Below, one piece after another: positions 37,963 through 64,000 of a DNA stretch of 64,000 nucleotides. Every line of letters begins with the position of its first letter. Positions within the stretch are counted from its first letter, which is position 1. The notes beneath the pieces were generated by a model. It did not search any database, was not told the DNA's origin, and saw only the letters and a program-made list of their open reading frames with translations. The DNA is from Patescibacteria group bacterium. GTDB taxonomy: Bacteria > Patescibacteriota > UBA1384 > XYA2-FULL-43-10. Made by a program: the position numbers and the translations under genes. The stretch is from positions 87,158 through 151,157 of the forward strand of contig JBAYVT010000002.1 of the NCBI GenBank assembly GCA_041674405.1. The letters are read 5' to 3'.

Positions 37963-38001
37963 CCAGAATCAAGAATCAGGTATTAAGAATTAAGCTCACT
38001 G

Positions 38002-39018: not shown

Positions 39019-39087
39019 GGTTCAATTATATCGAATGTTTCGTAAAATTTTAATGTGGCCGCCTGCTCGCCATCGGGCAGGCGCGGC

Positions 39088-39315: not shown

Positions 39316-39390
39316 GGCCTTGCCCCCTTCCTAGAAGTCAGTACTCAATTCGTAGCACAAGAATTATGAAAATTCTATGAATTTCTACAC

Positions 39391-39423
39391 AAAAAAAATC
39401 AGGCAATGCCTGACTTGTTTTTT
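39391..39423. terminator. terminator hairpin TCAGGCA-A-TGCCTGA flanked by A8 and T-tract, downstream of HD-domain gene
   Basis: Read directly from the sequence. It is symmetric and so potentially bidirectional. Confidence 0.6.
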
Positions 39424-39433
39424 GAATCAATAA

Positions 39434-40027: not shown

Positions 40028-40032
40028 TTCTT

Positions 40033-40944
40033 TTACTTTCCCAAAACTTGAAAATAATAGGAAAAAATTTTGTTTTTTATCGCAGCCGAAAGAAACATTC
40101 CAGCAGCAAAACTCATTAAAATATCTTGTGAAAAAATTGGACCAAATAATTTACCCTTCCACGTAGTTCTCCCCAATATATGCAATGATCTTTCTCGCAG
40201 CATATCTGCAGTCGGAATTACCAGGTTAGAGATAACATCATTTTTTTCAATAATCATTTTTGCTTTTTCAACATCTTTTTTGAATTTTTCAATTGATTCG
40301 AATTCATCTACCGCCATTCCTTTCGCCACCAACGATTTTATCAATAGCTCATTTTCCGAGAGACCAGATTCATCTCTCACAGAATACATGTCGAAACAGA
40401 TGAAGACCCCTCCCGGTTTTAGAACTCTCTTAATCTCTTCGAGAACTTTGGTTTTATTGCTAGTATGACAAATCGTCTCAATTGCAAAAACAATCTCAAA
40501 AGAATCTTCCTCATACAAACTTAGATCGTGATAATCGCCAACAACCTGAGAAAAATTCTTATTTTTTCGATATCTCGCAAGTGGTTTAAGAGAATAGTCT
40601 AGCGCAAAAAAACTGATTGATGGATATTTTGAGGCAAGTAACCCGCTATTAGCGCCATTTCCAGCTCCTAGCTCTAAAATTTTTTTTGCTTTTAGGCTCT
40701 CAATATATTTCTCAATAATTTTGATTGGCCCCAGATAGTCTAACTTTTTGAATTTTCCGTCATACGACAAACCGGAGTGCATCATGCCACTACGATCGTA
40801 AAAAATGATATACGGCAGTCTATTGATCCTGTAGTACTTTTTAACCCCCTTGCCCTGATATTCATTTTTGAGCACAGCATCAATGTCTATCCGTTTCCGC
40901 ACAATGTTTAAATCTTGATTGATTTTTTGGTCAATGATATTCAT
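40033..40944 (-). CDS. class I SAM-dependent methyltransferase
   Basis: 303 aa with motif I ILELGAGNGANSGLLA. Confidence 0.7.
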   Translation of the reverse strand: MNIIDQKINQDLNIVRKRIDIDAVLKNEYQGKGVKKYYRINRLPYIIFYDRSGMMHSGLSYDGKFKKLDYLGPIKIIEKYIESLKAKKILELGAGNGANSGLLASKYPSISFFALDYSLKPLARYRKNKNFSQVVGDYHDLSLYEEDSFEIVFAIETICHTSNKTKVLEEIKRVLKPGGVFICFDMYSVRDESGLSENELLIKSLVAKGMAVDEFESIEKFKKDVEKAKMIIEKNDVISNLVIPTADMLRERSLHILGRTTWKGKLFGPIFSQDILMSFAAGMFLSAAIKNKIFSYYFQVLGK

Positions 40945-40955
40945 GTTTACCTTAT

Positions 40956-41042
40956 TGGTGCTCGGGAGAGGACTTGAACCTCCATGGATGTTACTCCGCT
41001 AGCTCCTAAGGCTAGTGCGTCTACCATTTCGCCACCCGAGCA
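40956..41042 (-). tRNA. tRNA-Leu (anticodon TAG), long variable arm
   Basis: Anticodon stem-loop CTAGC-CTTAGGA-GCTAG and acceptor GCTCGGG/CCCGAGC. Confidence 0.85.
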
Positions 41043-47721: not shown

Positions 47722-48984
47722 CTATCCAATTGGGCTTATCTTTCTTAATTTCTCAATTATTCCCGGCAATACTTCCATAAGGCGATCTATTTCTTCTTCG
47801 GTGGTGTATCTCCCAATTGTGAATCGAATTGAGCTATGTGCTCTTTCTTCGGGGTATCCAAGCGCCATTATCACATGTGAGGGTTCAAGGGAACCCGATG
47901 TACAAGCCGAACCTGTAGAGGCCGCGATCCCTAGCATATCCAAATTGAGCAGAATCGACTCGCCTTCGATGCCGGCAAATGAAATATTTACATTATTCGG
48001 GCTTCTGCAAATATCCGTGCCATTCAATTTGGCATTTGCAATATTATCGACAATACCCCTGATTAATTTTTCTCTCAATTTCAATGATTTTTCCGTTGCA
48101 TTAGTCATTTTAAGAGATGGAAAATCCTCTGACACAATCGCCCCATCGGTGTCAGCGGCATCGCGGATTACTAGTTCGGCCGCCTTGGCAAAACCGACTA
48201 TGCCCGCGACATTCTCCGTGCCCGCTCGCTTCTTGTATTCTTGTCCACCACCGGTGATTTCCGGCTTAAGCGGGGTGCCTTTTTTGGCGAATAAAAGGCC
48301 GACTCCCTTCGGCCCATAAATTTTATGAGCCGTCATTGTAAGAAGATCGACATGCAAATATTTAGTTCCCATTTCGAAATACTCTGCTGCTTGCACTGCA
48401 TCGGTATGGAAATAAATTTTTTGGGCATTGGGGTTTTTTTCAAGCCGACCCAGGTTTTCCTTCTCAATCATCTTGCCAATTTCGCGGATCGGCTGTGCTG
48501 TGCCAATTTCATTATTTACATACATTACAGAAACCAGGGCAGTGTTTTTACGGATTGCTTTTACTACTTGCTGGCTATTGATTACGCCATCTTGCTCCGG
48601 GCTTATGTAGGTAGCTTCGATTTTCCCCTGTTTCTCTAGATCTTTTACGGTATCCAAAACTGCATGATGTTCAAATGTTGAAGTTACAACATGAGGTTTT
48701 TTATTCATGCCTTTATAGTCTGGCAACATCGATTCGATCACGCCGCGGATAGCCAGATTATCCGATTCCGACCCGCCAGATGTAAATAGAATTTCGCTTG
48801 GAGCGCAATCAAGAAAAAATGCCAAAAATTCTCTGGCTTTGTCGACTGCCGCTCTCGCCTCCTGCCCAAACCCGTGAACCGACGAAGGATTGCCGAAACT
48901 CACGCCAAAATATGGCGTCATTGCTTCAATAACTTCCGGCGCAACTGGCGTGGTCGCAGCATTATCTAGATATATTCTCTTCAC
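47722..48984 (-). CDS. iscS: cysteine desulfurase (NifS/IscS class V aminotransferase)
   Basis: 420 aa with a PLP-lysine region …LLTMTAHKIYGPKGVG… and the active-site loop …STGSACTSGSLEPSHV…. Confidence 0.9.
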   Translation of the reverse strand: MKRIYLDNAATTPVAPEVIEAMTPYFGVSFGNPSSVHGFGQEARAAVDKAREFLAFFLDCAPSEILFTSGGSESDNLAIRGVIESMLPDYKGMNKKPHVVTSTFEHHAVLDTVKDLEKQGKIEATYISPEQDGVINSQQVVKAIRKNTALVSVMYVNNEIGTAQPIREIGKMIEKENLGRLEKNPNAQKIYFHTDAVQAAEYFEMGTKYLHVDLLTMTAHKIYGPKGVGLLFAKKGTPLKPEITGGGQEYKKRAGTENVAGIVGFAKAAELVIRDAADTDGAIVSEDFPSLKMTNATEKSLKLREKLIRGIVDNIANAKLNGTDICRSPNNVNISFAGIEGESILLNLDMLGIAASTGSACTSGSLEPSHVIMALGYPEERAHSSIRFTIGRYTTEEEIDRLMEVLPGIIEKLRKISPIG

Positions 48985-49205
48985 TTATCTTCCTTTGATT
49001 TCTCAACGATCGATACTACTTTTCTTAAATCAGAAACGCACTTCTTGCAATTTTCCTGTTTGGACAAATTATCAAAATCAGATTTAGATATTAAATAAGC
49101 CACCGGCTTGGAATACCTGACAACCTCAAACACATCTCCGTCCTCAACTTCTTTAAGAACCTTAGAAATGTTATTTTGCAATTCGTTTACGTTGATATTT
49201 TTCAT
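48981..49205 (-). CDS. Phd/YefM-family antitoxin-like small protein (no cognate toxin adjacent)
   Basis: 74 aa. …ISKVLKEVEDGDVFEVVRYSKPVAYLISKSDFDNL… matches the Phd/YefM fold pattern. It overlaps the iscS start by 4 nt. Confidence 0.5.
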   Translation of the reverse strand: MKNINVNELQNNISKVLKEVEDGDVFEVVRYSKPVAYLISKSDFDNLSKQENCKKCVSDLRKVVSIVEKSKEDK

Positions 49206-49294: not shown

Positions 49295-52200
49295 TTAAGA
49301 TTTAGAATTTCTCTTTTCCATCTCAATCTTTTTATTTACGGCAGAAATTTCTTCATCCGTATCAAACCTTACCGGTTTTGGCAGAGTGTAACCTTCCTTG
49401 GTAGCTAAAATTGTGTACCTACCCCGTTTCAAAATCGCCGAAAACTTACCTTTGTCATCAGTTACCGCAGTCTTTACAAGCCTTGTGTTATCTCCGGTCA
49501 TTATCCTAACCAACGTTAGGCCGATAGGCTCGCCCTTATGTCGGTCTACCACCATGCTCCATGGCGACTTTCTTATGACCAGTGAGAAATTGATAACCCA
49601 AAGCAGAATATAGCCGGCAAGGATCAGATAATTTAACAAATTTGGGTCATGAATTAAATTGTTCAAGACCAATATGGTACCGGCCGTAAGTACAACAATC
49701 GAAGCATAATTGAAGAATCTTTCCATTTTTCTAAGCCAACCCAAGATTGCATGAATACCAGAAAGGCTTTTGCCATTTATACTCATTATGATCGTCGGCA
49801 CCAAAAATCCTTTGGTATAGCTATCAATCTCATATATTTTCCCTGTGTCAAAATCATAATATTGATCCGGTTTTGGTGCGAGCTGGTACTTGTCTTTCTT
49901 CGCGATGATTTTGTATTTGCCCGGAGGTTCGGCGAATCCGTACACGCCTGATTTATCGGTGGTTGTTGTCTCAATAACCCTTTCTGTGCCATCTTCGCCT
50001 ACTTTAATCAAGCTAACCATCGCTCCAGAAAGCGGCAAACCGGTTCCATCCTCGAGCACTTGGCCCCATTTTTTGCGTTTCTTTTTAACCGTACCGAAAG
50101 ATAGAATGGAATAAACAATTATATGAATGACTTCCTTGAGTGAGAATAAAGTTATTAAGTTTGTTGCGGGTGCCAATCCGGCGACAACTACTGCCATGCC
50201 CAGAGCTGCTGCGGCAGTCACTGGCGGAGCAGCCTCTTTTGAGATACCAACAGCTGCATAAACTTTTTCTATTCCCCCTGCAACAATATCGATTGAAACC
50301 GCCACATCTTCGACGCCGCCGACAATGCCACCAATAATAACTTCACCGATTGTTTCTTTTCGTACATTTACTGACGCAGCAGCCTTCACATCACCGAATG
50401 AAGCTTGAACGGTGTTTTCAAATGAGCCAACTTCCTTACCTGCGGTGAATAATCCGGTTTGGTCAATCTCCCCGCCACCATTCATAACCGACCACACGAT
50501 AATTGCTGTTGGAATTTCTGAATCATCTGAGGCAAAAGCTTTTGCACTAAACTGCACGGAGTCTTCAACTTTTATTTTCGCACTTGTCGGTGAAATGATA
50601 ATGTATGATGCAGTTTTTTCCGGATTTCCCAGAGTTGTCACCTCAGACGCAGTAGAAAAATCAGTTTCAACGTTGCTATTATTTCTTGCCTTAAGCCTAT
50701 AAGCATAATTCGTAGAAGCTGCAAGGCCTGTGTTTATAAATCCGTCGCTTCCACCCCAGTCGGCATACAATTGCCAATCGGGACTATCGGAAAATGCCCC
50801 ATCGGAATGCCTGACATACTTACCTGCGGTGTCATTGTAAATCGCATATCGTGTGTTAGCTGGGTTGCCGTTTTGGTTAATCGCAATTTTTACTGATGAC
50901 TCGGAAACTACTGAAAGAATTGGGGCATCTGGTGTGTTCGCAAGAGTATAAGATGTAGCAAAATTTGACTTTTCCGTTCCTTTCCTATTGGTCACGGTAA
51001 CTTGGCGAGTATATGCCGTATTCGGAGCAAGAGATTGTTCTAGCCAGGACGAGGCAGAAGCTGCAAGTGTTCCCGAGAGCGGATTGCCAGCGGCATCTAA
51101 CACTGCCCAACTGGTGTGATCATCGTCGGTATTTGACCAAACCCAATTAATCTGGCTGGTAACAATGTCTGTTCCCCTGAAATCTGTAGAGGGTGTAGGC
51201 CCAAGGCAATTCGCCGTTGTGAAATTTATGATTGCAGAATAATTCCCCGCGCCATTCTGGTTTGACGTTGCGGACACCTTGGCGTAATACTTTGTTTTTC
51301 TTGCAAGGCCCGATAAAGAAGTGGCTGTTGTGCTGATATCCGAAATTGTGCCTTTATTTGAAGCTCCGGAATCCGTTCCGTACGAAAGAGTATATTTATC
51401 CGCGCCCTCTGGCGCAATCCATGTCAGGTTCGCCGAAGTTCTGCAAACGGCATTTGCTTCTAGGCTCGCTGGAGCAGCTGGCGGAGTGACTTTTGCCGAA
51501 GATGGAGAATAAGTTGTGTCGGTATTGTCCCCATTTCTTGCTTTGGCCTTGATCCAATACTGGGTATTTGGATCAAGATTAGCCAATGTATATGATGTAC
51601 TTGTCTGCCAGGACATGCCGGCGGGATCGGTAAAATCCGTGCCATTTATTGAATATTGGATCCAATAGTTTGTTCCTGATGGATTCAAACTTGGGCTAAT
51701 TGTTCCTGTTACGAAATATGCCCCCGCCACCGTTGAAACCGTCGGCATATTGGCAAGCGTGTACTTTGGAGATGAATAGGCGCTTGTTGAGTTGCCGGCG
51801 TCATTAAACGCAACAACTTTAGCACAATATTGTGTATTTATATCCTTACCATCAACGTCTTGCGAGGTTTCCCCGGCACCAGTCGTATAGTCGGGAGAAT
51901 CTGGATAAGAAGCCTGTGAACAATCAGAATTCGGAGTGGTAGAAATATAAACCTTGAATCCGGTTTCATCAGATGAGTTGTCGTCCCAAGTCACTTGGAA
52001 AGAATCGTTTTGGATGGTGCCTATTGCTGCATTAGTTGGCGCACTCGGCGCTGTAACACAAGAGCCGGTGGGAGAAATATTCCAATCGGTATTACTTCCC
52101 CCATCCGTAGAATAAGTAGCACAGAAAGAGGCACCCGAATTGGTAGAATTTGAGATGGTGGCGTACGAAATAGTTGCGGTGGCCGGGTTAATATTCCAGC

Positions 52201-55200
52201 CACCAGAACCACCAGACCTCTTAAGAACTACATGGCTTCCCGAAGTTCCGGTTACCGTCCATGTGCCAGATATCGTTTGGGTCGAGCCCGCAGAAAAGGA
52301 TAAGGTTTTGCCTGCAGTAGCGGCAGTGAGGTTATTAAAAGTCGTATCTCCCTCTATCAAGGAGTCACCAGTTAGCGTAACTGTACCGCTCCCAGGAGTG
52401 AAGATACCGCCTGCATGGTTCCAACCGCCAGATACACTCATGGTGGATGGAGCACTGAAGCTAGCATTACCGTTTAAGATGAAATTACCAATGTTCATCG
52501 AAGGGTTATTTGTGATTCCATCAACATCGGTCTGGTTGGTTCCATCACCAATTGTAAGATTGTTAGTAACACCAAAGCTACCGGAAGATAGAGTCAAAGT
52601 TTTGTTTCCAACAAAGCTCTGCCAGATAAAACCGGTCATATCGCCAAAAGAGTGATAAGGACCTGAACCAACATTATAGGTACCAATGACGGCACCAGTC
52701 GAGCCGTTAAGCTTTGTTATGGTGTTGCCGCCAATGCTCGTTACCCATACATTGCCGTCGCCATCAATTCCCGGATGGTCGCCATTGCCGATCGAATAAG
52801 TTCCGATTACTGCACCAGTCGAGCCGTTAACTTTGTAGACCGTTCCGCTATTAACAACCCAGACATTGCCGCTGCCATCAACTGCCAGATTAGCACCAGG
52901 AACCGAGTAGATATCAATGACAGCGCCGGTCGAACCGTTAAGCTTGGTAATGCCAATATCGCCGTCGCTAGCCGTCCAGACATTCCCATCACCGTCGACT
53001 GCTATGCTAAAAGGAGCGCCGTTAACCGAATAAGTGCCGATCAGTGCACCAGTTGAGCTGTCAAGTTTAGTAACGTTACCACTTCCGTGATTGCAAATCC
53101 AAACATTGCCACTACGATCAGCCGCCACTCCCGAAGGACTAGTACCCGTTGAATATGTGCCCATGACTGCACCAGTCGAGCCATTAACCTTATTAATATG
53201 GCTGCTATCGTAGGGGACCCAGACATTGCCAGCATTATCAACGCCCGGGTTACCACCACCGACCGCATAAGTGCCGATCAGTGCGCCGGTCGAACCATTG
53301 AGTTTAGTAACGTTGCCGCTGTAAGGATTGCCGACCCAGACATTGCCACTGCCATCAACTGCCACACCATAAGGACCAGTACCCACCGCGTAAGTTCCAA
53401 TGACGGCACCAGTTGAACTGTTAAGTTTGGTTATATTGTTGCTACCGCTATTAGTCACCCAAACATACGGTGTTACCGCTGGATCCAGCAATTCTAGGTT
53501 ATAATAATTTGCCGCCGTAATGTTTGTGTTAGAAGAAGCACGATATATAAAGGTAGAAGTCGAAGCAGTAAATGTACCCGTTTTAACAAACGGCGTGCCC
53601 GAACCGGTCAAAGTTATTGTCCGATTTGAAGCATCGAAGGTACCAGCATTGATCGTCAGTATGTTTGTAGTTGTGATATCCCCGGCTGCAGTGAAAGTCG
53701 TTCCCGCATGATCAAGGTAAAGATTGTAGTAAGTGGTCGCCGTAATATTAGTTGCCAATGCTCCGGTATACTTGAGGGTTGATGTGCCCTCTTGGAAAGT
53801 TCCGGTTACTACCAATGGCGTTCCTGGCGCGGCCAAAGTAATCGTTCTGGAGGATGCAGCAAATGTGCCGGCATTGATGGTAAGGACTCCATTGATTGTG
53901 ATATTTCCGGCAGCAGTAAAGGTTGTGCCGGTATGGTCTGCAGCGTAGAGGTTGCAATAGGTAATAGCATTAATGTTTGTTGCGCTTGTTCCTTGGAATT
54001 TGACTGTCGATGTACTTTCGGTAAATGTGCCGCTGATGGATAGTGGATCACCTGATTCTGTCAAAACTAAGGTAGTATTATCCAGATTGACAACAGCAGT
54101 TGCCGGGATTTTAAGATTTGGGATAGTGGAGGTGGGAGCAGATGATGAATTAGGTCTCCAGGTATCAGTGCCTATGACATAGAGTATCTGGGAGGTTAGA
54201 GTTGCTTGATTGTAGGGCATAGCTAGGTCATTGGTTGCATTACCAATATCAAAGAGGATATCAGCATCAGACGAAACTGAACCATCGTATTGTGATAAAT
54301 CGGTATTGGATAGTGTTTGGGCAGTACCATTACCGACGACCAAATGCTGCTCAAAGAGAGTAACTCCAGTAATATCTCCCGATGTGTACTTGGTAACAGC
54401 ATTGGCTCGATGGGATTCAGTCGCGCCATCGATGAATACCGTAATTACATCACCGGCAGAGGGTTCGGTAACGCCAGAAATCGTCCAGGAACCAGAAGCA
54501 GTGGTGCCTGTAGCTGCATCCAAGGTGCCATTGATCGCTACCTTGACCGTCTCACCATCAGCACAAGCGGTTGATTCATCATACTGCTTACAAGTGCCGG
54601 AGATAGAGAAGGATGAACAGCCACTTGTTACAGTTGGAGCAGGAAGGGTACCATTGAACGAGGTCCAAGTCCCAGTCGTTGGCAAGACAGTGGGAGCACC
54701 GGCACTACCCCAGTCCACATAAGCCGACTGATCAGCAGGCGCAAGAAGTTTGCTGGTGTCCGACAACAGGTACCAACTACTGTCCCATGGATCTACTGCC
54801 AAAACCCTATTACTTGTATTGGTGTAATAAGGATTACTCCTAGCATCTACACTCGCATAAGTATACGACCCATTATAGCTTGAATCGCCCGCTCCAGAAA
54901 AAGTATACGACGAACATGCGGAGCATGATCCGGTTAAACTAATATTCCAGCCGGTATTTCCCCCGCCGTCAACTGAGTAAGTCGCACAGAAACTACCTGT
55001 ATTACTAGACTTAGAAACATTGGCGTAGGATATTGCAACATTATTACTTGCAGATAAATTCCAGTTGGCACCGCCCGATGGAGCTAAAGTAATTAAGTTA
55101 CCGGAAGTCCCAGCAATATTAATTGCATAATTGAAATTATAGTTTGAACCCGAGTTGAAAGTTAGGGTTGAGGGCGCAGTTGTGTTGGTAAATGTACGCG

Positions 55201-58200
55201 TGACCGACGTTGCCCCAGTGAAGGTGAAATTTGTATTAGCATGCTCAGCCGTAAGGTTGTAATAAGTTACTGGTGTAATATTTGTTGCGGAAGAACCTGT
55301 ATATTTTATCGTTGAAGTCGAGTAAGTAAATGTACCTGTGGCTACGAAAGGTGTACCTGATCCAGACAAAGTGATGGTTTTATTTGATGCATTAAATGTG
55401 CCGGCATTTATTGTCAAAACATTGTTTGCGGTGATGTCGCCCGCCGCAGTGTAGGTTTGGCCAGCTTTATCGATGTAAAGATTGTAATAGGTCGCAGAAG
55501 TTACATTAACCGGACCTGTACCTGTGTATTTTACAGTTGAAGTAGAAGCGGTGAATGTTCCGGTTTTAACAAACGGCATGCTAGTTCCAGATAAAGTAAT
55601 TGTCTTATTTGATGCATCAAAGGTTCCGGCATTGATGGTAAAAACACCAGTTCCGTTTGAACCAGTTGAGATATCACCGGCTGCTGTAAAAGTTGTTCCT
55701 GCGTGATCTAAATAAAGATTATTATAGGTAGTTGATGCAATATTAGTCGCAGAAGCGCCTGTGTATTTGACTGTGCCAGTCATACACTGAAATGTACCGT
55801 TGATCACAAACGGCGTACCAGAACCGGAAAGGGTGATGGTACCTGTCGGCGAATCATTAAATGTACCAGCATTAACGGTGAAAACATTTGTTGATGTAAT
55901 ATCCCCTGCTGCGCTAAAGATGGTCCCTGCACGATCTAAATAAAGATTGTAATAGGTAGTCGCTGTAATATTCGTTGCCAACGAGCCAGTATATTTAACT
56001 GTGGATGTAGAAGGTGTAAAAACGACATTATTTACAAAAGGAGTACCTGATCCAGACAAGGTAATAGTTTTATTGGACGCATCGAAAATCGAGTCATTGG
56101 TCAAAACATTAGTGACATTTATATCGCCCATGGCTGTAGATACTGCTGTGGTTACTAAGTGGAGGTTGTAATAGGTGGTAGAGGCAATGTTTGTTGCCGC
56201 TGCGCCGTAATATTCTACGGTTGAAGTTGATGCCGTAAAAGTACCAGTAACAACAAATGGCGTTCCCGTTGACATGAATGTAATAGTCTTATTAGAGGCA
56301 TCAAAGGTGCCAGCATTGATGGTAAAAATATTTTCCACCTTGATATTTCCAGCCGCAGTAAATGTAGTACCTGCATGGTCCAGATACAGATTATAATAAC
56401 CAGGAACCATTCCCGAACCCATTGCAGTTACGTTTGTCGCCGAAGCACCGGTATATTTGATCGTTGAAGTTGAAGATTGAAACGTTCCGTTATTAACAAA
56501 TGGCGTGCCCGAACCAGATAATGTGATTGTTTTATTGGATGCATTAAATTCACCAGTGGTAATGCTTAAGACACCAGATACATCAATATCGTTATTTGCT
56601 GTCCAAATCCCCGAGCCATCATTGAAGGTCAAATTATTAAAGGCCGATCCTCCCGTCATATTTCCGGAAAGAGTTTTATCAGCTCCACCCGTCTGAAAAG
56701 TAACGGTTCCGGAATTGTTGTCAAATGTTCCGCTTGAATGATTCCAATTTCCATTAACAATAAAATTATTAGATGATGCGGGCGCACTTAATGACCCGCC
56801 CGAAATTGTGACATTACCAGCACTAATATCATGTGCCCCAGCGGTTAAGGTACCGGATGAAACAAGGAGATTGTTTGTAACATCAATATTGCTGGAAAGA
56901 GACCAGGCTGAAGATGGGATCGAATAATAAATCGTGCCTCTTACATAATTTATAATTGCATTTGAAACAGATGGAGTTATTTTCTTAATTGTCATCGCAA
57001 CGCCAAAGCTTGAATCGTTAACATCATTTGGCGTCCAAGTTAATCCCCACAGATTTCCATCCCCACCAAACGGAACATAATCCTCTGTCCCCGACCATAA
57101 TGCATCCGCAGATTGATTGGTGCCCCCAATGGTACCAGACTTAATGATTTCAATAATATCATCGGAAACAGGAGGCGAACTACCCATCCTTTTTGCTTCC
57201 ATTTTAATACCTGTAACCGTTGCATTGGTTGGAATATTAAAACCAAAATTTGTCGCTTTTAGATAATTAGAGCGTTTTCCTTGGGGAATACCAACAATTC
57301 TCGCATAATTTCCATCATCAGCAGTGATATCTTCGGGAGTTGACCAAGGACCATCTCCATAGCTTGCATCATTGGTTCCTGTTCCACATCCCAATGTGGA
57401 ACTAGTACTTCCCCCGCCGTTCTCACCTGCGATTGTAAGATTATAAAATTTCTGCCCAGAACCCAATATGATTGAGAAGTCTCCGCTTGTCCCATTAAAA
57501 TTTATTGTAGAATTTCCTTCATTGAAAGTAACATTTGAAGAATCCCAATCACCTGCAATATTAATTATGTGGCTTCCAGGGCTAAAGCTACCTGACGTCA
57601 TAGTAAAACCATCCGCAATCGTAATATCTCCAGCTGCAATAAAGTCTGTATTCGCATGGTTGATGACTAAATTATTATACGTCACGGAAGCCAAATTTGT
57701 ATCTGATGATCCTTCGTAGGAAATTGTTGAAGTTGACGGAGTAAAGGTACCGGTCACAACAAACGGGGTTCCACTCCCTGATAAAGTAATGGTTTTATTG
57801 GAAGCATCAAATGTGCCTGCATTGATAGTAAGGACTCCAGAAACGGTAATGTTCCCTGCTGCAGCAAAGGTAGTACCAGTCTTGTCTGCCGCGTAGAGAT
57901 TGTAATAAGAAAGAGCATTAACATTCGTAGCGCCTGATCCCTGGAATTTAATGGTGGAAGTGCCAATTGTGAAGGTGCCGGTGATAGAAAGTGGTGTGCC
58001 GGAGGCGGTTAATGCTAGTGTTGTGCCGGTAAGGTTGACGATGGCTGATGTCGGAATTACAAGGTTAGAAATGGTGGATGTTGGAGCATCAGTAGCAGCC
58101 GGTTGCCAAGTGTTGGAAGCCAAAACATAAAGCTTCTGGTCGGTATCTGTTTGGGTGCCTGACTCGGGCAGTGTTAAGTCTTTGGTTGTGGCATTAACTT

Positions 58201-61200
58201 CAAAGAAGATATCTTCATCAGACGAGACAGAGTTATCGTATTTCTCCATATCAGCATTTGAAAGAGTTTGGTTATCAGCTGAACCGATGGATAAATGTTT
58301 TTCATAAAGTGCTATGCCGGATACATTACCGGAGACATACTTTGTCACTGCATTTGCTTCATTGGCATCAGCAACACCATCGACAAAGATGGTGATAGTG
58401 TCGCCAGCCGATGGGGCTGTTACTCCGGTGATAGACCAGGACCCGCTTGAAGTTGTACCGGTAGCCGCATCGAGGCTCCCATTGATTGCTACTTTGATCG
58501 TTTCGCTGTCAGCACAATTCGAGGATTCGTCATATTGTTTGCAGGTACCGGAGATGGAGATGCTGGCCGGCGGAAATGCCCAATGATGGTTATTTCCACC
58601 GTCATATCCGCCAGTCGTGGCATTTACCAAGCTTCCTCCAGTTGCATCGGAATCGGTGACATTAACATAAGAAGCAGGTGGGCTATCCTGGACAACATTA
58701 AAATTCCAATGGTTGGTAGGTGTAGATGAAACCATAAATATTCTAGTACCTACTGCTCCGCCATTGATATCAAGGCCCATGATTGAATAAGTTGATCCAG
58801 CATGGAATGTAAGTTTAGAGGAAGGGGTAGTATCAGTAAAGACCCCATTGATAGTTGCCGAATCTGCAAAATAAACACCATTTGCCGACGCATTAGTAAT
58901 AGTAATGCTGTTAAAATCATGATTTCCATTTGTTCCACCAGCAGTGATGGTCTGTAAATCACTACCATCCAAGGTTAGTGTTCCGGTACCAGAAGTAAAG
59001 ATGCCAGTGGCCGAATTCGTATAATCGCCTGCAAGATAAAATGCAGCCGTACTTGAAGCCGTGAGAGTATTACCAGCGTCAATAATAACATCTCCATCAA
59101 CGTTAACTATGGGATCGTTTGTTTCGAATGACAATACGGCAGTTAATGCGCCTCCTCCAACATGCAAATTATTTGAAACATTTAAAGTGCCTGCCTGAAC
59201 ATTATGGGTACCTGAAAAATTTTCACGCGCTATCTGAAGGTTATAATATGTAGTCGCGGTTACATTTACAGCGGCGCCGACTGGGTCCGGGCAATCATAA
59301 AATAATGTTGAATTGTTGGCAGTGAAAGTGCCGTTGATCACAAAAGGAGTGTTAGTTCCTAATAGTGTAATTGTTTTATTTGAAGCGTCGAATTCACCTG
59401 CATTAATTGTTAAAAGATTTGAAACAGTCATATCCCCAGCCGCGGTAAAAGTCGACCCAGTTCGATCAAGATAAAGATTGTAGAATGTCGTCGCCGTCAC
59501 ATTTGTCGCAGATGAACCCTTATACTGAACGGTAGATGTGCCCTCCTGAAAAGTAGCGTTTATATTCACAAAAGGCGTGCCTGAGCCATTCAAAACAATT
59601 GTTTTATCGGAGGCATTAAAGGTTCCTACATCTAGCGTCAAAACGCTGCCAACGGTAATATTTCCAGCTGCGGTAAAGGTGGTACCAGTATGAACCAAAT
59701 ATAGATTATAATACGTCGCACTAGTTACATTGGTAGCGCTCGATCCGGCATACTTTATGGTTGAAGTAGCTTCTTGAAAAGTACCATTTACAACAAAAGG
59801 TGTACCAGAACCATATAGATAAACTGTCTTATCCGATCCGTTATATATCGTCCCGGTCTGAATAGTGAAAACTCCGTAGACCGAGAACGAGCCGGAAGAA
59901 AGCGGAGTAAATGTCGTGCCCGAATGGTCGAGGATTAGATTGTGGAACCCGAGTAACGCAACGTCAGTTGCTGACGCACTCTGATATGTGACGGTTGAAG
60001 TGTCGTAATTGAAGGTACTGCCCGTCTCCATTCTAAGAGGCCTCGACGAACTTTGTCCTGAGCCAGTAATTACTAAAGAATTATTATCCAATGTCATCGT
60101 AGACGATGCTTCGGCATATGATTTCGGCACAGTTGATGTGGTTCCACCACCGGATGCAGGCCGCCATGTATTATTTGCCTTAATTATAATCTTTTGGTCT
60201 GCATCAGTTTGGGTTCCGACTGCCGGCAGGGTTAGATTGTTTGATCCGTCAATTTCGAAAAAGATATCTTCATCGGAGGAGACGGAATTATCGTATTTAG
60301 AGATATCGTTGTTCGATAATGTTTGATTATCGTCAGAACCTAGATACAAATGCTTTTCGTAAAGGCTAATTCCTGTAATATTGCCCGAACCATCGTATTT
60401 GGTAACAGCATTCGCTTCGTTACCGTCAGCCACTCCATCGATAAATACGGTAATTGTGTCCCCAGAAGCAGGTGCTGTAACACCGCTTATGCTCCACGAA
60501 CCTCCGGATGTGGTTCCGGTTTGGGCTTGAATAGTACCATTTACCGCAACTTTTACAGTCTCTGAATCAGCGGCATTTGTCGATTCGTCATATTGCTTAG
60601 CAGTCCCTGAGATTAAAATTGTGGCAGGCCCACCTCCGCCTTCAGAAATAATAACCCCCGGCTCGACTTCTCCTGAAGCATCCCAGTCGTAAGGAGTCGG
60701 GTCACTAACTGGATCAGCATTAAACCAAGTATACCCAGGGTAAAAACTACCCAAAGTTGATGAAACAGCCCAAGATCCTCCCATATTTCCACTAAACCAA
60801 AGATAAGAGTTATTTTCATTTTTATAGACAGGGTACGGCGACGAACCGATATCTCCAAAGTATTGATCGTTATATGCAAACGTACCATTTGCATTCGTAT
60901 TACCAGCATTTGTGCCTGTATATGTATGGCCCGGATCTCCTCCCGGCGTTACGCCGCTTGGCGCCGGAGCGGTTCCCAGATTGGCCGTCCAGCTATTGCT
61001 TCCGGGAAGCGCGCCCTCCATAAGATAATAGTGTACATCCATCATCGCATCATTAAGAACGTCGCTAAGCATATATGCTCCGCCCCCGTCCCAGTACAAG
61101 TACATATTATTAGCGTTTTTCCAATAGTCACTTCCATAGGCATCCGTTCCGCCGTAAGAGTATTCGCCGTTATAATTGGCATCTCCTGCTCCCGCAACAG

Positions 61201-61471
61201 TCCATGTGGTTGTATTAGCAGCTAGAGCTTTAGGAGGCTTTTCAAAATTGATTGATGGGTTGACCATAACAAACCCAAGAACCGAAATCGCCACAATATA
61301 TAAGGTCAAGAACATCCAATGAAAGGGTGACGAAGATCCCGAAAGATGCCACTTGTAATACCAACCGAATTTCATGCGAAGAGCATTGTGCCATGGAGAA
61401 AATCGGGAGAATGTGGTTCTCGTGCTTTTTTGTACTTTCATTATTTCCCTGTCAAGCTCCACAGTTGTCAT
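49295..61471 (-). CDS. giant (4058-aa) envelope protein: N-terminal signal anchor, ~50-aa beta-solenoid-like repeats, NHL/YVTN-like beta-propeller, FN3-like and Big_2-like domains, C-terminal multi-TM anchor with two CarbopepD_reg/transthyretin-like domains
   Basis: It is a single uninterrupted ORF. There is an N-terminal TM (WMFLTLYIVAISVLGFVMV). More than 20 repeats of …TITLSGSGTPFV..GTF..STSTIKYTG..ATN.T..TYYNLYLDHAGTTFTAAGDIT… are present. About 9 propeller blades of …KLNGSTGAVIGTY.VG.GP.G.AVDGSGNVWV… span roughly nt 52630-53450. FN3-like units occupy about 50370-52080. The C-terminal ~330 aa hold three hydrophobic helices flanking …DKSGVYGF…GKYKIIAKKDKY… and …DDKGKFSAILKRGRYTILATKEGY…. 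Confidence 0.85.
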   Translation of the reverse strand: MTTVELDREIMKVQKSTRTTFSRFSPWHNALRMKFGWYYKWHLSGSSSPFHWMFLTLYIVAISVLGFVMVNPSINFEKPPKALAANTTTWTVAGAGDANYNGEYSYGGTDAYGSDYWKNANNMYLYWDGGGAYMLSDVLNDAMMDVHYYLMEGALPGSNSWTANLGTAPAPSGVTPGGDPGHTYTGTNAGNTNANGTFAYNDQYFGDIGSSPYPVYKNENNSYLWFSGNMGGSWAVSSTLGSFYPGYTWFNADPVSDPTPYDWDASGEVEPGVIISEGGGGPATILISGTAKQYDESTNAADSETVKVAVNGTIQAQTGTTSGGSWSISGVTAPASGDTITVFIDGVADGNEANAVTKYDGSGNITGISLYEKHLYLGSDDNQTLSNNDISKYDNSVSSDEDIFFEIDGSNNLTLPAVGTQTDADQKIIIKANNTWRPASGGGTTSTVPKSYAEASSTMTLDNNSLVITGSGQSSSRPLRMETGSTFNYDTSTVTYQSASATDVALLGFHNLILDHSGTTFTPLSSGSFSVYGVFTIQTGTIYNGSDKTVYLYGSGTPFVVNGTFQEATSTIKYAGSSATNVTSATYYNLYLVHTGTTFTAAGNITVGSVLTLDVGTFNASDKTIVLNGSGTPFVNINATFQEGTSTVQYKGSSATNVTATTFYNLYLDRTGSTFTAAGDMTVSNLLTINAGEFDASNKTITLLGTNTPFVINGTFTANNSTLFYDCPDPVGAAVNVTATTYYNLQIARENFSGTHNVQAGTLNVSNNLHVGGGALTAVLSFETNDPIVNVDGDVIIDAGNTLTASSTAAFYLAGDYTNSATGIFTSGTGTLTLDGSDLQTITAGGTNGNHDFNSITITNASANGVYFADSATINGVFTDTTPSSKLTFHAGSTYSIMGLDINGGAVGTRIFMVSSTPTNHWNFNVVQDSPPASYVNVTDSDATGGSLVNATTGGYDGGNNHHWAFPPASISISGTCKQYDESSNCADSETIKVAINGSLDAATGTTSSGSWSITGVTAPSAGDTITIFVDGVADANEANAVTKYVSGNVSGIALYEKHLSIGSADNQTLSNADMEKYDNSVSSDEDIFFEVNATTKDLTLPESGTQTDTDQKLYVLASNTWQPAATDAPTSTISNLVIPTSAIVNLTGTTLALTASGTPLSITGTFTIGTSTIKFQGSGATNVNALSYYNLYAADKTGTTFAAAGNITVSGVLTINAGTFDASNKTITLSGSGTPFVVTGTFTPSTSTISYEGSSDTNLASVTYNNLVINHANTDFIAAGDITIADGFTMTSGSFSPGSHIINIAGDWDSSNVTFNEGNSTINFNGTSGDFSIILGSGQKFYNLTIAGENGGGSTSSTLGCGTGTNDASYGDGPWSTPEDITADDGNYARIVGIPQGKRSNYLKATNFGFNIPTNATVTGIKMEAKRMGSSPPVSDDIIEIIKSGTIGGTNQSADALWSGTEDYVPFGGDGNLWGLTWTPNDVNDSSFGVAMTIKKITPSVSNAIINYVRGTIYYSIPSSAWSLSSNIDVTNNLLVSSGTLTAGAHDISAGNVTISGGSLSAPASSNNFIVNGNWNHSSGTFDNNSGTVTFQTGGADKTLSGNMTGGSAFNNLTFNDGSGIWTANNDIDVSGVLSITTGEFNASNKTITLSGSGTPFVNNGTFQSSTSTIKYTGASATNVTAMGSGMVPGYYNLYLDHAGTTFTAAGNIKVENIFTINAGTFDASNKTITFMSTGTPFVVTGTFTASTSTVEYYGAAATNIASTTYYNLHLVTTAVSTAMGDINVTNVLTNDSIFDASNKTITLSGSGTPFVNNVVFTPSTSTVKYTGSLATNITATTYYNLYLDRAGTIFSAAGDITSTNVFTVNAGTFNDSPTGTITLSGSGTPFVINGTFQCMTGTVKYTGASATNIASTTYNNLYLDHAGTTFTAAGDISTGSNGTGVFTINAGTFDASNKTITLSGTSMPFVKTGTFTASTSTVKYTGTGPVNVTSATYYNLYIDKAGQTYTAAGDITANNVLTINAGTFNASNKTITLSGSGTPFVATGTFTYSTSTIKYTGSSATNITPVTYYNLTAEHANTNFTFTGATSVTRTFTNTTAPSTLTFNSGSNYNFNYAINIAGTSGNLITLAPSGGANWNLSASNNVAISYANVSKSSNTGSFCATYSVDGGGNTGWNISLTGSCSACSSYTFSGAGDSSYNGSYTYASVDARSNPYYTNTSNRVLAVDPWDSSWYLLSDTSKLLAPADQSAYVDWGSAGAPTVLPTTGTWTSFNGTLPAPTVTSGCSSFSISGTCKQYDESTACADGETVKVAINGTLDAATGTTASGSWTISGVTEPSAGDVITVFIDGATESHRANAVTKYTSGDITGVTLFEQHLVVGNGTAQTLSNTDLSQYDGSVSSDADILFDIGNATNDLAMPYNQATLTSQILYVIGTDTWRPNSSSAPTSTIPNLKIPATAVVNLDNTTLVLTESGDPLSISGTFTESTSTVKFQGTSATNINAITYCNLYAADHTGTTFTAAGNITINGVLTINAGTFAASSRTITLAAPGTPLVVTGTFQEGTSTLKYTGALATNITATTYYNLYLDHAGTTFTAAGDITTTNILTINAGTFDASNRTITLTGSGTPFVKTGTFTASTSTFIYRASSNTNITAANYYNLELLDPAVTPYVWVTNSGSNNITKLNSSTGAVIGTYAVGTGPYGVAVDGSGNVWVGNPYSGNVTKLNGSTGALIGTYAVGGGNPGVDNAGNVWVPYDSSHINKVNGSTGAVMGTYSTGTSPSGVAADRSGNVWICNHGSGNVTKLDSSTGALIGTYSVNGAPFSIAVDGDGNVWTASDGDIGITKLNGSTGAVIDIYSVPGANLAVDGSGNVWVVNSGTVYKVNGSTGAVIGTYSIGNGDHPGIDGDGNVWVTSIGGNTITKLNGSTGAVIGTYNVGSGPYHSFGDMTGFIWQSFVGNKTLTLSSGSFGVTNNLTIGDGTNQTDVDGITNNPSMNIGNFILNGNASFSAPSTMSVSGGWNHAGGIFTPGSGTVTLTGDSLIEGDTTFNNLTAATAGKTLSFSAGSTQTISGTWTVTGTSGSHVVLKRSGGSGGWNINPATATISYATISNSTNSGASFCATYSTDGGSNTDWNISPTGSCVTAPSAPTNAAIGTIQNDSFQVTWDDNSSDETGFKVYISTTPNSDCSQASYPDSPDYTTGAGETSQDVDGKDINTQYCAKVVAFNDAGNSTSAYSSPKYTLANMPTVSTVAGAYFVTGTISPSLNPSGTNYWIQYSINGTDFTDPAGMSWQTSTSYTLANLDPNTQYWIKAKARNGDNTDTTYSPSSAKVTPPAAPASLEANAVCRTSANLTWIAPEGADKYTLSYGTDSGASNKGTISDISTTATSLSGLARKTKYYAKVSATSNQNGAGNYSAIINFTTANCLGPTPSTDFRGTDIVTSQINWVWSNTDDDHTSWAVLDAAGNPLSGTLAASASSWLEQSLAPNTAYTRQVTVTNRKGTEKSNFATSYTLANTPDAPILSVVSESSVKIAINQNGNPANTRYAIYNDTAGKYVRHSDGAFSDSPDWQLYADWGGSDGFINTGLAASTNYAYRLKARNNSNVETDFSTASEVTTLGNPEKTASYIIISPTSAKIKVEDSVQFSAKAFASDDSEIPTAIIVWSVMNGGGEIDQTGLFTAGKEVGSFENTVQASFGDVKAAASVNVRKETIGEVIIGGIVGGVEDVAVSIDIVAGGIEKVYAAVGISKEAAPPVTAAAALGMAVVVAGLAPATNLITLFSLKEVIHIIVYSILSFGTVKKKRKKWGQVLEDGTGLPLSGAMVSLIKVGEDGTERVIETTTTDKSGVYGFAEPPGKYKIIAKKDKYQLAPKPDQYYDFDTGKIYEIDSYTKGFLVPTIIMSINGKSLSGIHAILGWLRKMERFFNYASIVVLTAGTILVLNNLIHDPNLLNYLILAGYILLWVINFSLVIRKSPWSMVVDRHKGEPIGLTLVRIMTGDNTRLVKTAVTDDKGKFSAILKRGRYTILATKEGYTLPKPVRFDTDEEISAVNKKIEMEKRNSKS
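52630..53450 (-). repeat. coding repeats for ~9-bladed NHL/YVTN-like beta-propeller within the giant gene (approximate bounds)
   Basis: About 40-aa blade periodicity is visible in the protein and in the plus-strand shadow ORFs (52775..53056 and 53198..53416). Confidence 0.6.
54140..54720 (-). repeat. ~180-aa module, copy 3 of 3 (…ISGTCKQYDES…VTKY…EKHL…QTLSN…DNSVSSDEDIFF…), approximate bounds
   Basis: Nucleotide-level similarity to the copies near 58090 and 60170. The antisense shadow ORFs share ISKRISASDETEPSY/ISKKISSSEETELSY. Confidence 0.55.
55200..56700 (-). repeat. main tandem array of ~150-nt (~50-aa) coding repeats within the giant gene (approximate bounds; smaller arrays near 53480-54050, 57480-58020, 59180-59900)
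   Basis: Recurrent nucleotide strings appear (e.g. GGTGTACCTGATCCAGACAAAGTGATGGTTTTATTTGATGC at about 55365 versus GGAGTACCTGATCCAGACAAGGTAATAGTTTTATTGGACGC at about 56040). Repeated antisense shadow ORFs read …VPVLTNGVP..KVIV…SKVPALMV…SPAAVKVVPA. Confidence 0.6.
58090..58640 (-). repeat. ~180-aa module, copy 2 of 3 (approximate bounds)
   Basis: The shadow ORF 58314..58586 parallels 54231..54722. Confidence 0.5.
60170..60650 (-). repeat. ~180-aa module, copy 1 of 3 (approximate bounds)
   Basis: The shadow ORF 60009..60326 ends …ISKKISSSEETELSY…, as in the other copies. Confidence 0.5.
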
Positions 61472-61486: not shown

Positions 61487-64000
61487 TTAGGTAATTGATT
61501 TTTTCTTTAGTTCCAACTTTTTACGAAGTGCAGCCATATTATCTTGATTGGCAAATTCCACCGGATGATCAAGCTCATATCCCTCCTTCGCTGCAAAAAT
61601 GTTATATTTGCCTTTCCTTAACATAGCAGAGAATTTTCCCTTTTGGTCCGAAACAGTAGTTCTGACTAGTTTGTGGCTGTCTGAATTCATCACCCGAATC
61701 AAGGTTAGAGGGACCGGCTCTCCGGTATTCGATTCAGCCACAATACTCCATGGCGAATTTCTAATGATGAAAGATGCGTTGATAATCCAAAGCAAAAAGT
61801 ATCCAACAACAATAACGTAATTTAAAAGAGTGTGCTCGTGTATGACGTTATTGGCCGCTAATATTGACCCGAGTGCAAGTAATACGAATGAAAAATATAC
61901 AAAATATCTTTCTAATTTCCTAAACGATGCGACTAATTTTGCGATATTACCGAGCTTCTTTCCGTTGACGTTCATAATAATTGTGGGAACAATCAAACCT
62001 TCTTCGTAGCTCAAAACATTAAATATCTTTTTGGGGTCAAAGTTATAAAATTGGTCTTCAATAGATGCAACCGTGTGTTTTTCTTTGCTCGCAATGACAC
62101 GATATTTGCCAGGTCCAGCAGCAAAACCATATACCCCGTCTTTATCAGTAAATGACGATTCTATGACTTTCTCAGTATCAGCATCGTCCACCTTAACCAG
62201 GCTTACCTGAGCCAGATATAAGGGCATTCCTGTTCCATTTTCAATTACTCTTCCCCATTTTTTCTTCTTTCGTTTTAAAGTTCCAGCCGAAAGAATCGAG
62301 TAAGACAAAACATGATATATTTCATTCAGAGAAAACAGCGATGATGCTGTGGCCATCGGAGTCATTGCAGCTGCCATTCCAGCAGCACCCAGCGCTGCAG
62401 CTGAGGTTATTGGGGTCGCTGCTTGTTTAGATATCCCGACCGCTTGGTATATTTTTTCAATTTGTCCTGCAGTGGTATTAATGACACCAGAAATTAACGT
62501 CGCACTCTTAACAATTCCATCGACTAAATTATTAATGATTGTATCGTTTTTTATAATAACGGTGGCGAAAGATTGGCTCTCACCCACAGAGGCTTCAATT
62601 GTATTATTATATGTTCCAGTATCTGGTCCCGCAGTGAAAAATCCATTTTTATCGATTGCTCCGCCTCCATTTACCACTGACCAAACAATATTGACGTTGG
62701 ATATTTCTTTGTTATCTAAAGTGAATGCTCGGGCTTTGAACTGAAGGGTTTCATTTGGCCCGATTGTGGCGGTTACCGGATCAATGGCGATTGAAGCAAT
62801 ATTTGAAACAGGGCTATCTCCACCTTTTGGACTATCTGGAAGTGTTAAATTCTCTCCGGGCGATGAGAAAGAAGTTTCTATGCTATCTCCATTTTTTGCC
62901 TTAACCAGATAATCATATTGCGTGCCGACCAAAAGATTGTAATTAATAATGCCCGAACTTCCCCCCCACACGTTTCGCGTTTGCCAAACGGCGCTATTGC
63001 CCAGGGATCCATCAGCTTGCACATACTTTCCGGAAGTTTGATTATAGATAGCGTATTGGGTCGAAGGCGGATTGTTATTTGAGTTGATGATGATCTTTAA
63101 AGAATTACTAGATAATGCATTGACCATCGGTGCATTTGGTTGATTAGCCAGCGTGTAGAAAGGAGCAGTATATGATCCAGGCGAGTCATTACCAGAATTG
63201 GTTGCCGTAATTCTGGCGCAATATTGAGTATTAACACTTTTTCCTGAGATAAATTGCGAGGTCGTATTTGCACCCAAAGCATAATCCGGGTAATCCGGAT
63301 ATGAGGCAAACTCGCAATTATCACTTGTGGCAGTTGAAATAAAGATATTAAAGCCAGTTTCGCTTGAAGAGTTATCGATCCAATTCAGAGTGAAGAAAGT
63401 TGTGTCCACCCCTACAACCGAAGCCCCTGTGGGGGCAGCAGGGGTCGCTTCGCAGATCGTAGATGAACCAATCTGCCAGCCAATATTACCCCCCACATCA
63501 ATAGAATAGTTTGCACAGAATTGGATTCCTGAATTAGTTGATTGAGAAATTGAAGCGTGAGAAACTACGGCTTTCGCCGGATTTATTATCCAATTTCCTG
63601 AACTGCCAGACCCTCGTAGATTAATATTGTGGCCACTAGACCCAGAAATACTCCATGTGCCGGTAATTGTTTGGGTTGAGCCGGCTGAAAAAGATATGGT
63701 CTTTCCACCCGTAACGGCCGTGAGATTGTTGAAAGTGGTATTTCCCTGAATCAGAGAATCGCCATTCAAAGTTACTGTCCCGTTGCCGGGAGTGAACGTG
63801 CCACCATTATTGTTCCAGCCGCCCGAAAGATTAATGTTTGAGGGAGCGTTAAAGTTCGCATTACTCTTTAATGTAAAATTTCCGCCTATGTTAATTGTTG
63901 GATTATTTGCCAATCCGTCAACAGTGGTTTGATTAGCGCCATCACCAATCTGAAAATCGTTAGCGATATTAAACGTACCATTTGATAAAGTTAAAACTTT
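61487..64000 (-). CDS. second giant envelope protein, paralogue of 49295..61471 (C-terminal >830 aa; gene runs off the window end)
   Basis: The reading frame is open to the window edge; the track's 63913 boundary is an internal TTG. It aligns with the first protein (…NNPTINIGGNF…TFNNLTAVTGGKTISFSAGSTQTITGTW… versus …NNPSMNIGNF…TFNNLTAATAGKTLSFSAGSTQTISGTW…). It has the same FN3-like, Big_2-like and C-terminal multi-TM plus CarbopepD_reg-like anchor. It stops 15 nt before the start of the downstream giant gene. Confidence 0.85.
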   Translation of the reverse strand, partial: KVLTLSNGTFNIANDFQIGDGANQTTVDGLANNPTINIGGNFTLKSNANFNAPSNINLSGGWNNNGGTFTPGNGTVTLNGDSLIQGNTTFNNLTAVTGGKTISFSAGSTQTITGTWSISGSSGHNINLRGSGSSGNWIINPAKAVVSHASISQSTNSGIQFCANYSIDVGGNIGWQIGSSTICEATPAAPTGASVVGVDTTFFTLNWIDNSSSETGFNIFISTATSDNCEFASYPDYPDYALGANTTSQFISGKSVNTQYCARITATNSGNDSPGSYTAPFYTLANQPNAPMVNALSSNSLKIIINSNNNPPSTQYAIYNQTSGKYVQADGSLGNSAVWQTRNVWGGSSGIINYNLLVGTQYDYLVKAKNGDSIETSFSSPGENLTLPDSPKGGDSPVSNIASIAIDPVTATIGPNETLQFKARAFTLDNKEISNVNIVWSVVNGGGAIDKNGFFTAGPDTGTYNNTIEASVGESQSFATVIIKNDTIINNLVDGIVKSATLISGVINTTAGQIEKIYQAVGISKQAATPITSAAALGAAGMAAAMTPMATASSLFSLNEIYHVLSYSILSAGTLKRKKKKWGRVIENGTGMPLYLAQVSLVKVDDADTEKVIESSFTDKDGVYGFAAGPGKYRVIASKEKHTVASIEDQFYNFDPKKIFNVLSYEEGLIVPTIIMNVNGKKLGNIAKLVASFRKLERYFVYFSFVLLALGSILAANNVIHEHTLLNYVIVVGYFLLWIINASFIIRNSPWSIVAESNTGEPVPLTLIRVMNSDSHKLVRTTVSDQKGKFSAMLRKGKYNIFAAKEGYELDHPVEFANQDNMAALRKKLELKKKSIT

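Follow-up and report, generated by a model that had tools for sequence, protein, structure and literature searches.

Two tandem genes encode proteins with the same C-terminal module

The window analysed here, a 64,000-nucleotide stretch of a Patescibacteria contig (JBAYVT010000002.1), carries on its minus strand two tandem paralogous genes, A and B, of which B lies upstream and is partial at the window edge (Table 1). The stop codon of gene B is 15 nt upstream of the start of gene A. The gene A product consists of an N-terminal leader and anchor, an ectodomain of ~3600 amino acids (aa) rich in Ser, Thr, Asn and Gly, with at least three fn3 domains, and a C-terminal cassette, the predicted second anchor and the subject of this study. 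A first-pass annotation of the window had described a C-terminal pattern shared by both giant proteins, which in gene A falls in the interval 49295-50290 (aa 3728-4058). All the strings it quoted are present on the minus strand, and the last ~340 aa of A and B are one conserved, previously unannotated module with 52% identity between the two copies (gene B aa 502-837, about 61490-62497).

The module defines a family found in Patescibacteria

We searched 1.84 billion cluster representatives with a profile of the module and obtained 3874 matches at E <= 1e-3, 53 of them at E <= 1e-30. The best 150 of the 3874 matches were re-scored together with A and B, and a module was called full when it started at or before position 45 of the hidden Markov model (HMM) and ended at or after position 300 in one stretch. 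The full module was found in 108 sequences: 106 database representatives, A (HMM 1-337 at aa 3721-4057 of 4058) and B (HMM 2-337 at aa 502-837 of 837). The 106 full-length database members have E values of 1e-77 to 1e-22, so that the resemblance is far beyond chance, and the module matches as a single unit at identity as low as ~21%. Since the 150th match (E = 1.4e-22) still contains the full module, the family is larger than our sample. In 96 of the 106 database members the module ends no more than 40 aa from the C-terminus.

The first-pass annotation had raised the idea that the module might define a family of giant-protein anchors. It does define a family, but one that is not specific to giant proteins: members range from 326 to 5960 aa and the passengers that precede the module from ~40 to ~5600 residues. 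Every member of the sample with an organism name belongs to Patescibacteria or Berkelbacteria, and the names given to the proteins reflect the passenger or a generic domain (Calx-beta, fibronectin type III, PKD, GLUG, carboxypeptidase-like regulatory domain). The family came to light only through the exhaustive profile search. Word-index homology searches returned one match with the module and three with a 46-sequence alignment, and a profile search of genome contigs gave, among the matches listed, only generic CarboxypepD_reg domains in unrelated phyla.

One member, P0054 (locus L030, 370-1356), is a complete 328-aa gene that encodes the cassette alone, with a charged N-terminal tail of 27 aa, no signal peptide and no passenger. 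Thus, the cassette can exist as an independent membrane protein. It also appears autonomous in its genomic context, because no neighbor gene is conserved across six family loci, where the surrounding genes encode ribosomal proteins, translation factors and cell-envelope proteins. As a separate observation, at one of these family loci (L010, 4996-16968) a 3164-aa cassette gene, P0010, stands between the genes for ribosomal proteins L1 and L10-L7/L12 and thus interrupts a normally conserved ribosomal-protein cluster.

Organization and predicted structure of the cassette

In the following, module positions are gene A residue numbers minus 3709, and conservation refers to columns of the 108-sequence alignment. 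From its N-terminal side, the module comprises an outer amphipathic helix, a transmembrane helix (TM1), a short helix (H2), a basic junction that reads RKKRKK-WG, a first domain, a basic helix that continues into TM3, a turn, TM4, a second junction (K-x-S-P-W-G) and a second domain. TM1 corresponds to ~25 columns nearly devoid of Lys, Arg, Asp and Glu. H2 has a conserved Glu in about half of the members and an Arg in about one third. Lys or Arg occupies 34-91% of each of the six clamp columns (78-91% at four of them), and the nine-column junction formed by positions 87-95 has a net charge of +4.8. It is followed by Trp93 in 95 of the 108 members and by Gly94 in all of them. TM3 (210-232) has a conserved Gly222 and TM4 (239-257) a conserved Tyr245 and Trp249; the turn between them (233-238), with Pro234 and Asn238, has a net charge of ~0. 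In domain 2, Arg280 is present in 104 of the 108 members. In gene A, 257 residues follow the KKKRKK cluster, which comprise the two domains and the TM hairpin.

Table 1. Features of genes A and B in the window. Membrane placements are predictions.
Feature	Position	Strand	Residues and remarks
Gene A	49295..61471	minus	complete open reading frame (ORF), 4058 aa; NCBI MFA7244068.1, 'hypothetical protein', from a Patescibacteria metagenome-assembled genome
Gene A N-terminus	61256..61471	minus	aa 1-72; basic conserved leader, then hydrophobic helix aa 49-72 (Kyte-Doolittle)
Big_2-like beta-sandwich	50363..50620	minus	aa 3618-3703; last predicted extracellular domain before the cassette; AlphaFold2 pLDDT ~90
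Amphipathic linker helices, outer side	50249..50350	minus	aa 3708-3741; module 13-32; conserved module starts here; low pLDDT
TM1, Ala-rich putative stop-transfer helix	50144..50218	minus	aa 3752-3776; module 43-67
H2, short amphipathic helix	50087..50143	minus	aa 3777-3795; module 68-86
Polybasic clamp KKKRKK	50069..50086	minus	aa 3796-3801; module 87-92; family consensus R-K-K-R-K-K
Domain 1, CarboxypepD_reg / transthyretin-like beta-sandwich	49775..50068	minus	aa 3802-3899; module 96-190; predicted cytoplasmic
Basic amphipathic helix, continuous with TM3	49718..49774	minus	aa 3900-3918; module 196-213; net +2.6; model helix H283-324
TM3-turn-TM4 tight hairpin	49574..49717	minus	TM3 aa 3919-3941; DPNLLN 3942-3947; TM4 3948-3966
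Second basic junction RKSPW	49559..49573	minus	aa 3967-3971; module 258-263; consensus K-x-S-P-W-G; net +2.3
Domain 2, CarboxypepD_reg / transthyretin-like beta-sandwich	49310..49558	minus	aa 3972-4054; module 263-345; predicted cytoplasmic
Gene B	61487->64000	minus	tandem paralogue upstream of A; partial at window edge
Gene B cassette	61502..62404	minus	
Gene B, TM1	62333-62404	minus	
Gene B, H2	62276-62332	minus	
Gene B, KRKKKK	62258-62275	minus	
Gene B, domain 1	61967-62257	minus	
Gene B, pre-TM3 helix	61907-61966	minus	
Gene B, TM3	61838-61906	minus	
Gene B, loop	61820-61837	minus	
Gene B, TM4	61763-61819	minus	
Gene B, RNSPW	61748-61762	minus	
Gene B, domain 2	61502-61747	minus	

What are the two domains? 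Within the last ~480 aa of each protein, two stretches match CarboxypepD_reg (PF13620; 59.5 bits in A and 59.9 in B, against a gathering cut-off of 32.3; E ~4e-16). We modeled gene A aa 3618-4058 and the stand-alone P0054 with AlphaFold2 (mean predicted local distance difference test, pLDDT, of 84.0 and 85.2) and compared the models with the Protein Data Bank (PDB) using Foldseek. The two sandwiches resemble the transthyretin-like domain of carboxypeptidase D (5aq0; target TM-score 0.84, root-mean-square deviation 2.4 A). Other matches are the N-terminal extension (NTE) domain of SusC (9hfj, target TM-score 0.72), CnaB2, SdrD B and SpaA; NOMO (9c7u_B) and SlaB (8qox_B) match weakly at the level of a single domain. 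The CarbopepD_reg-like identity proposed in the first-pass annotation is thus borne out by both profile and fold. Its call of a Big_2-like domain ahead of the cassette stands by fold, since that domain resembles LigA, LigB and Big_2-CBM56 (probability 1.0, target TM-score 0.4-0.66), but no Pfam Big_2 match was found for it at E <= 0.1.

Both domains and the TM3/TM4 hairpin have pLDDT values above 90 in both models, in which TM3 forms the end of a helix of 36-42 residues and TM4 is 21 residues long. TM1 (19-24 residues) and H2 (16 residues in gene A, 14 in P0054) are also helical, at low confidence (pLDDT 44-79), and the linker helices of gene A correspond to H91-100 and H105-124. In neither model is a hydrophobic stretch built as a strand. 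Consistent with the models, Kyte-Doolittle hydropathy gives a strong TM3/TM4 pair in A and B, as had been proposed. The first hydrophobic stretch, for which a single block had been described, is above threshold in A and weaker, below threshold, in B, and it resolves into one TM helix followed by a short amphipathic helix.

The half of the cassette with domain 1 aligns to the half with domain 2 over 100 columns (hhalign probability 99.9%, E = 2.8e-32), starting ~10 residues within the helix that precedes the basic junction. Thus, the cassette is an internal duplication of a [helix - basic junction - W-G - beta-sandwich] unit. As a whole it is covered by no model in Pfam or NCBIfam and has no structural match in the PDB, where both Foldseek queries gave single-domain matches only (whole-query TM-score <=0.26). 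A sequence search of the PDB returned only a weak match to a NOMO2 domain (E = 2.9e-5).

N-terminal export signals

On which side of the membrane does the passenger lie? The N-terminus of 62 family members is signal-peptide or anchor-like, and 12 more, including gene A, start with a basic leader followed by a helix; the remaining N-termini are mostly fragments or have a hydrophobic segment placed further in. Because most complete members thus begin with a signal peptide or signal anchor, the passenger appears to be exported. From its sequence, the gene A N-terminus is predicted to be an export signal or signal anchor that places the passenger outside.

The leader itself is conserved. Its consensus is LD.EI.RIQKST...H..LR.KF.WYY.WH, with nine invariant positions among 12 aligned sequences; a hydrophobic helix comes next, in many cases with an A-x-A-like site. 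It resembles extended signal-peptide regions and has no Pfam or NCBIfam model. We found it on 13 cassette-bearing proteins and at 19 metagenome loci (L011-L029); a word-index homology search with the leader alignment returned two fragments only. Just one of the five complete leader-bearing metagenome ORFs contains the cassette. The leader therefore appears to be an independent export or anchor signal, and a coupling of leader and cassette, with both ends docking in the cytoplasm, was rejected.

Predicted membrane topology and its alternatives

With the passenger exported, basic junctions on the inside would require an odd number of spans between passenger and domain 1. Averaged over the 108 modules, the net charge is -0.25 before TM1, +4.8 after the first hydrophobic region, +2.6 before TM3, ~0 in the TM3-TM4 turn and +2.3 after TM4, so that the junctions flanking domains 1 and 2 sum to ~+10. 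Is the first hydrophobic region one span or two? Membrane insertion was estimated crudely, by summing Hessa biological-scale values over the best 19-residue window. The median cost is +7.3 kcal/mol for H2, compared with +2.8 for TM1, +1.4 for TM3 and +1.6 for TM4, and H2 also has the highest hydrophobic moment (1.06 vs 0.54-0.64). In 11 members TM1 and H2 together are only 34-36 aa long, which is too short for two spans. We therefore favor the reading that H2 is too short and too polar to cross the membrane, and it is predicted to lie non-spanning at the cytoplasmic interface.

The composition of the domains was compared with that of the passengers, of cytoplasmic proteins and of other copies of the same fold. 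In gene A, Lys plus Arg (K+R) make up 3.4% of the ectodomain, 11.6% of domain 1 and 20.5% of domain 2; the corresponding figures are 10.7%, 26.3% and 34.9% for all charged residues and 46%, 26.3% and 24.1% for Ser, Thr, Asn and Gly (S+T+N+G). Seven pooled cytoplasmic proteins of the window have 14.2% K+R, 27.4% charged residues and 21% S+T+N+G. Domains 1 and 2 exceed their own passenger in K+R in 73 of 73 proteins (13.5% vs 5.0%). The same fold has 3.4% K+R in long, presumably extracellular arrays, and extra copies within the passengers of family members mostly have 2-10%. Thus, the composition of domains 1 and 2 is cytoplasm-like and differs from that of extracellular copies of the same fold.

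Taken together, these five computed indicators (charge, N-termini, the properties of H2, the 34-36-aa members and composition) agree with the first-pass proposal, a polytopic anchor at the C-terminus that leaves the ectodomain outside and both sandwiches in the cytoplasm. The predicted topology, which we consider probable, has three spans: the passenger would lie outside, TM1 would be the sole first span, domains 1 and 2 would be cytoplasmic and the TM3-TM4 turn would face outside. Several observations weigh against it. TM1 is only marginally hydrophobic, with an insertion cost of +5.0 kcal/mol in gene B, and is modeled at low confidence. Domains of the CarboxypepD_reg, CnaB and SdrD-B types are typically extracytoplasmic. 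In the hhalign alignment of the internal duplication, H2 pairs with the end of TM4; an ancestral hairpin can therefore be read in the first unit, which would leave the domains on the passenger side. The argument from composition is weakened because the presumed-external Big_2-like domain is itself 21.6% charged.

Most of these observations would fit a topology in which TM3 and TM4 alone anchor the protein and both sandwiches form an external stalk near the membrane or a spacer toward the wall; TM1 and H2 might be re-entrant or peripheral, and the basic junctions would bind anionic lipids or wall polymers at the outer face. The typical location of the fold speaks for it (SdrD B, SpaA, CnaB2, the SusC NTE domain, NOMO and SlaB are all among the matches), as do the marginal TM1 and the H2-TM4 equivalence. 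It would, however, expose a net charge of ~+10 on the outer side, with no such charge in the sole cytoplasmic loop, give a cytoplasm-like composition to external domains, and provide no reason for ~25 nearly charge-free TM1 columns to be kept family-wide. Moreover, the stand-alone P0054 lacks a signal peptide with which its domains would be exported. We regard this topology as unlikely. It is still less likely that TM1 and the polybasic cluster act as a sortase- or exosortase-like signal, so that the passenger would be cut just upstream and either set free or linked to the wall, while what is left of the cassette would be a remnant or processing platform. LPXTG, PEP-CTERM and PGF-CTERM signals do share this layout of a hydrophobic helix ahead of a Lys/Arg cluster, and upstream of TM1 lies a semi-conserved stretch, G-[IVL]-x-x-E-x-x-P. 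Yet within the 60 aa up to TM1, LPxTG occurs in none of the 108 modules and a loose pattern in nine, which is chance level, and no sortase-like gene is adjacent at any of the six loci. Sorting signals also end the protein, whereas here ~260 conserved, well-folded residues follow the basic cluster; with the lack of LPxTG, these residues argue that the cassette is not a sortase-type signal.

Could the hydrophobic stretches be no membrane segments at all? They might be buried strands or linkers in tandem CarboxypepD_reg repeats, a fold that does form long tandem arrays (P0044, P0047-49 and others), with the likeness of A and B due to recent paralogy. The arrays, however, lack these helices, both AlphaFold2 models give helices with TM3/TM4 pLDDT above 90, the hydrophobic columns are nearly free of charge in 108 diverged members, and the module is C-terminal and matches as one unit down to ~21% identity. 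This reading is hardly credible, and the earlier assignment of TM helices, not buried beta-strands, holds in the predicted structures.

A model for C-terminal anchoring

How might the cassette hold a passenger? We propose, as a reasonably likely interpretation, that it is a self-contained C-terminal membrane anchor that arose by internal duplication and that, among named members, is restricted to Patescibacteria (the candidate phyla radiation, CPR). In this model the variable passenger would be exported through Sec by its N-terminal signal peptide or long conserved leader (a SecA gene is present in the window). The Ala-rich TM1 would then act as a stop-transfer segment, and the amphipathic H2 and RKKRKK clamp would keep the following chain on the cytoplasmic face, where domain 1 would fold. 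TM3 and TM4 would insert as a tight hairpin with the uncharged turn outside, and domain 2 would fold in the cytoplasm. The outcome would be a three-span 'rivet' with two folded basic 'stopper' domains beneath the membrane, which, with no need for a sortase motif, could tether adhesin-like ectodomains to the cytoplasmic membrane whatever their length. On a more speculative note, the stoppers might resist extraction of the passenger under load or serve as a platform for contacts, either lateral or in the cytoplasm, roles that we put forward tentatively.

In about ten members (e.g., P0084, P0104 and P0106), a disordered tail of 50-150 aa rich in Pro, Ser, Glu and Lys extends beyond domain 2, and some of these tails end in a run of lysines. 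Under the predicted topology, these tails would lie in the cytoplasm. No recognizable cytoplasmic domains were found in the C-terminal extensions past domain 2.

Alternatively, the cassette could be a transmembrane coupling device, with the two conserved, basic domains and the strongly conserved TM hairpin binding an intracellular partner or self-assembling under the membrane. Coupling to an intracellular partner had been suggested in the first-pass annotation and gained no support from the six loci; the idea of an operon-encoded partner was dropped because no neighbor gene is conserved among them. We consider a coupling device improbable. If it were true, the giant adhesins of episymbiotic Patescibacteria would pass force or contact signals inward, much as integrins or the gliding legs of Mycoplasma do, but by a previously undescribed architecture.

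A large part of bacterial diversity belongs to Patescibacteria, of which, to our knowledge, all cultivated representatives live attached to other microbes. The cassette looks like a common, sortase-independent way for these bacteria to hold very large surface proteins, and the module profile could flag CPR surface proteins now labeled 'hypothetical' or 'carboxypeptidase regulatory-like domain-containing'. If the domains are cytoplasmic, they represent an unusual use of a classically extracellular fold inside the cell, as well as a defined entry point for studying whether contact with the host is sensed, or coupled mechanically, across the membrane.

Repeats and surroundings of genes A and B

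The ectodomain of gene A contains further repeats. An ISGTxKQYDES motif opens three large repeats (aa 287, 973 and 2290), numerous diverged repeats carry DASNKTITL-type and TYYNLY-type motifs, and aa 2684-2960 hold seven NGSTGA...GNVWV blades with a propeller-like look and a weak Mala_s_1-like match. Tandem Repeats Finder detected no DNA-level repeats in genes A and B, and the repeats of gene A are too diverged for it at that level.

The two genes lie in a housekeeping region: the window encodes SecA, several aminoacyl-tRNA synthetases, PBP2, FtsA, RecG, MnmA, FolD, NifS/NifU and eight tRNAs. The tRNA genes (21443-41041, minus strand) include four tRNA-Leu of differing anticodon and a tight Phe-Cys-Gly cluster at 29571-29820 (minus strand). 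Between gene A and the cysteine desulfurase gene, a 74-aa PhdYeFM-type antitoxin-like ORF (48981-49205, minus strand) has a 4-nt overlap with the desulfurase gene start and no obvious adjacent toxin gene. Elsewhere (6060-7871, minus strand), an Asp/Lys/Asn-type class II aminoacyl-tRNA synthetase has DUF2000 fused at its C-terminus.

Comparison with known systems

The cassette is built from known parts: transthyretin-like domains, TM helices and basic stop-transfer junctions. No description was found of the way in which they are arranged here, of the predicted cytoplasmic placement or of the wide reuse as a Patescibacteria C-terminal cassette: the literature searched yielded no account of this architecture, and a preprint on the CPR Pam pilus that surfaced there proved unrelated.

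The closest likeness in overall layout may be sought in Mycoplasma mobile, where Gli521, a 4727-aa surface protein with a C-terminal TM part, is a force-transmitting element of the gliding machinery; an internal F1-like ATPase complex also belongs to that machinery (PMC7052211). Like genes A and B, Gli521 and Gli349 are very large surface proteins (3000-4700 aa) that TM segments at a terminus fix to the cell of a wall-less or minimal bacterium. We found no similarity to them in sequence or domains; the analogy is one of layout only.

At the level of the fold, the cassette domains share structure and Pfam family (PF13620/PF13715) with the SusC N-terminal extension and the carboxypeptidase D transthyretin-like domain. 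In those proteins, however, CarboxypepD_reg forms soluble extracytoplasmic accessory domains, and none has been described paired around a C-terminal TM hairpin. NOMO, of the BOS complex, and archaeal SlaB come nearer, in that transthyretin-like or Ig-like sandwiches are joined to a C-terminal membrane anchor. Their sandwiches are luminal or extracellular and a single TM segment ends the chain, whereas those of the cassette alternate with three or four helices and are predicted to be cytoplasmic.

Gram-positive LPXTG and stop-transfer anchors differ from the cassette in another way, since it contains no LPXTG or other known motif and continues past the basic cluster with two folded domains and a TM hairpin. 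Like these anchors, it has, in the C-terminal part of a surface protein exported by Sec, a hydrophobic helix with a Lys/Arg cluster directly behind it, and in both cases the basic residues should remain in the cytoplasm.

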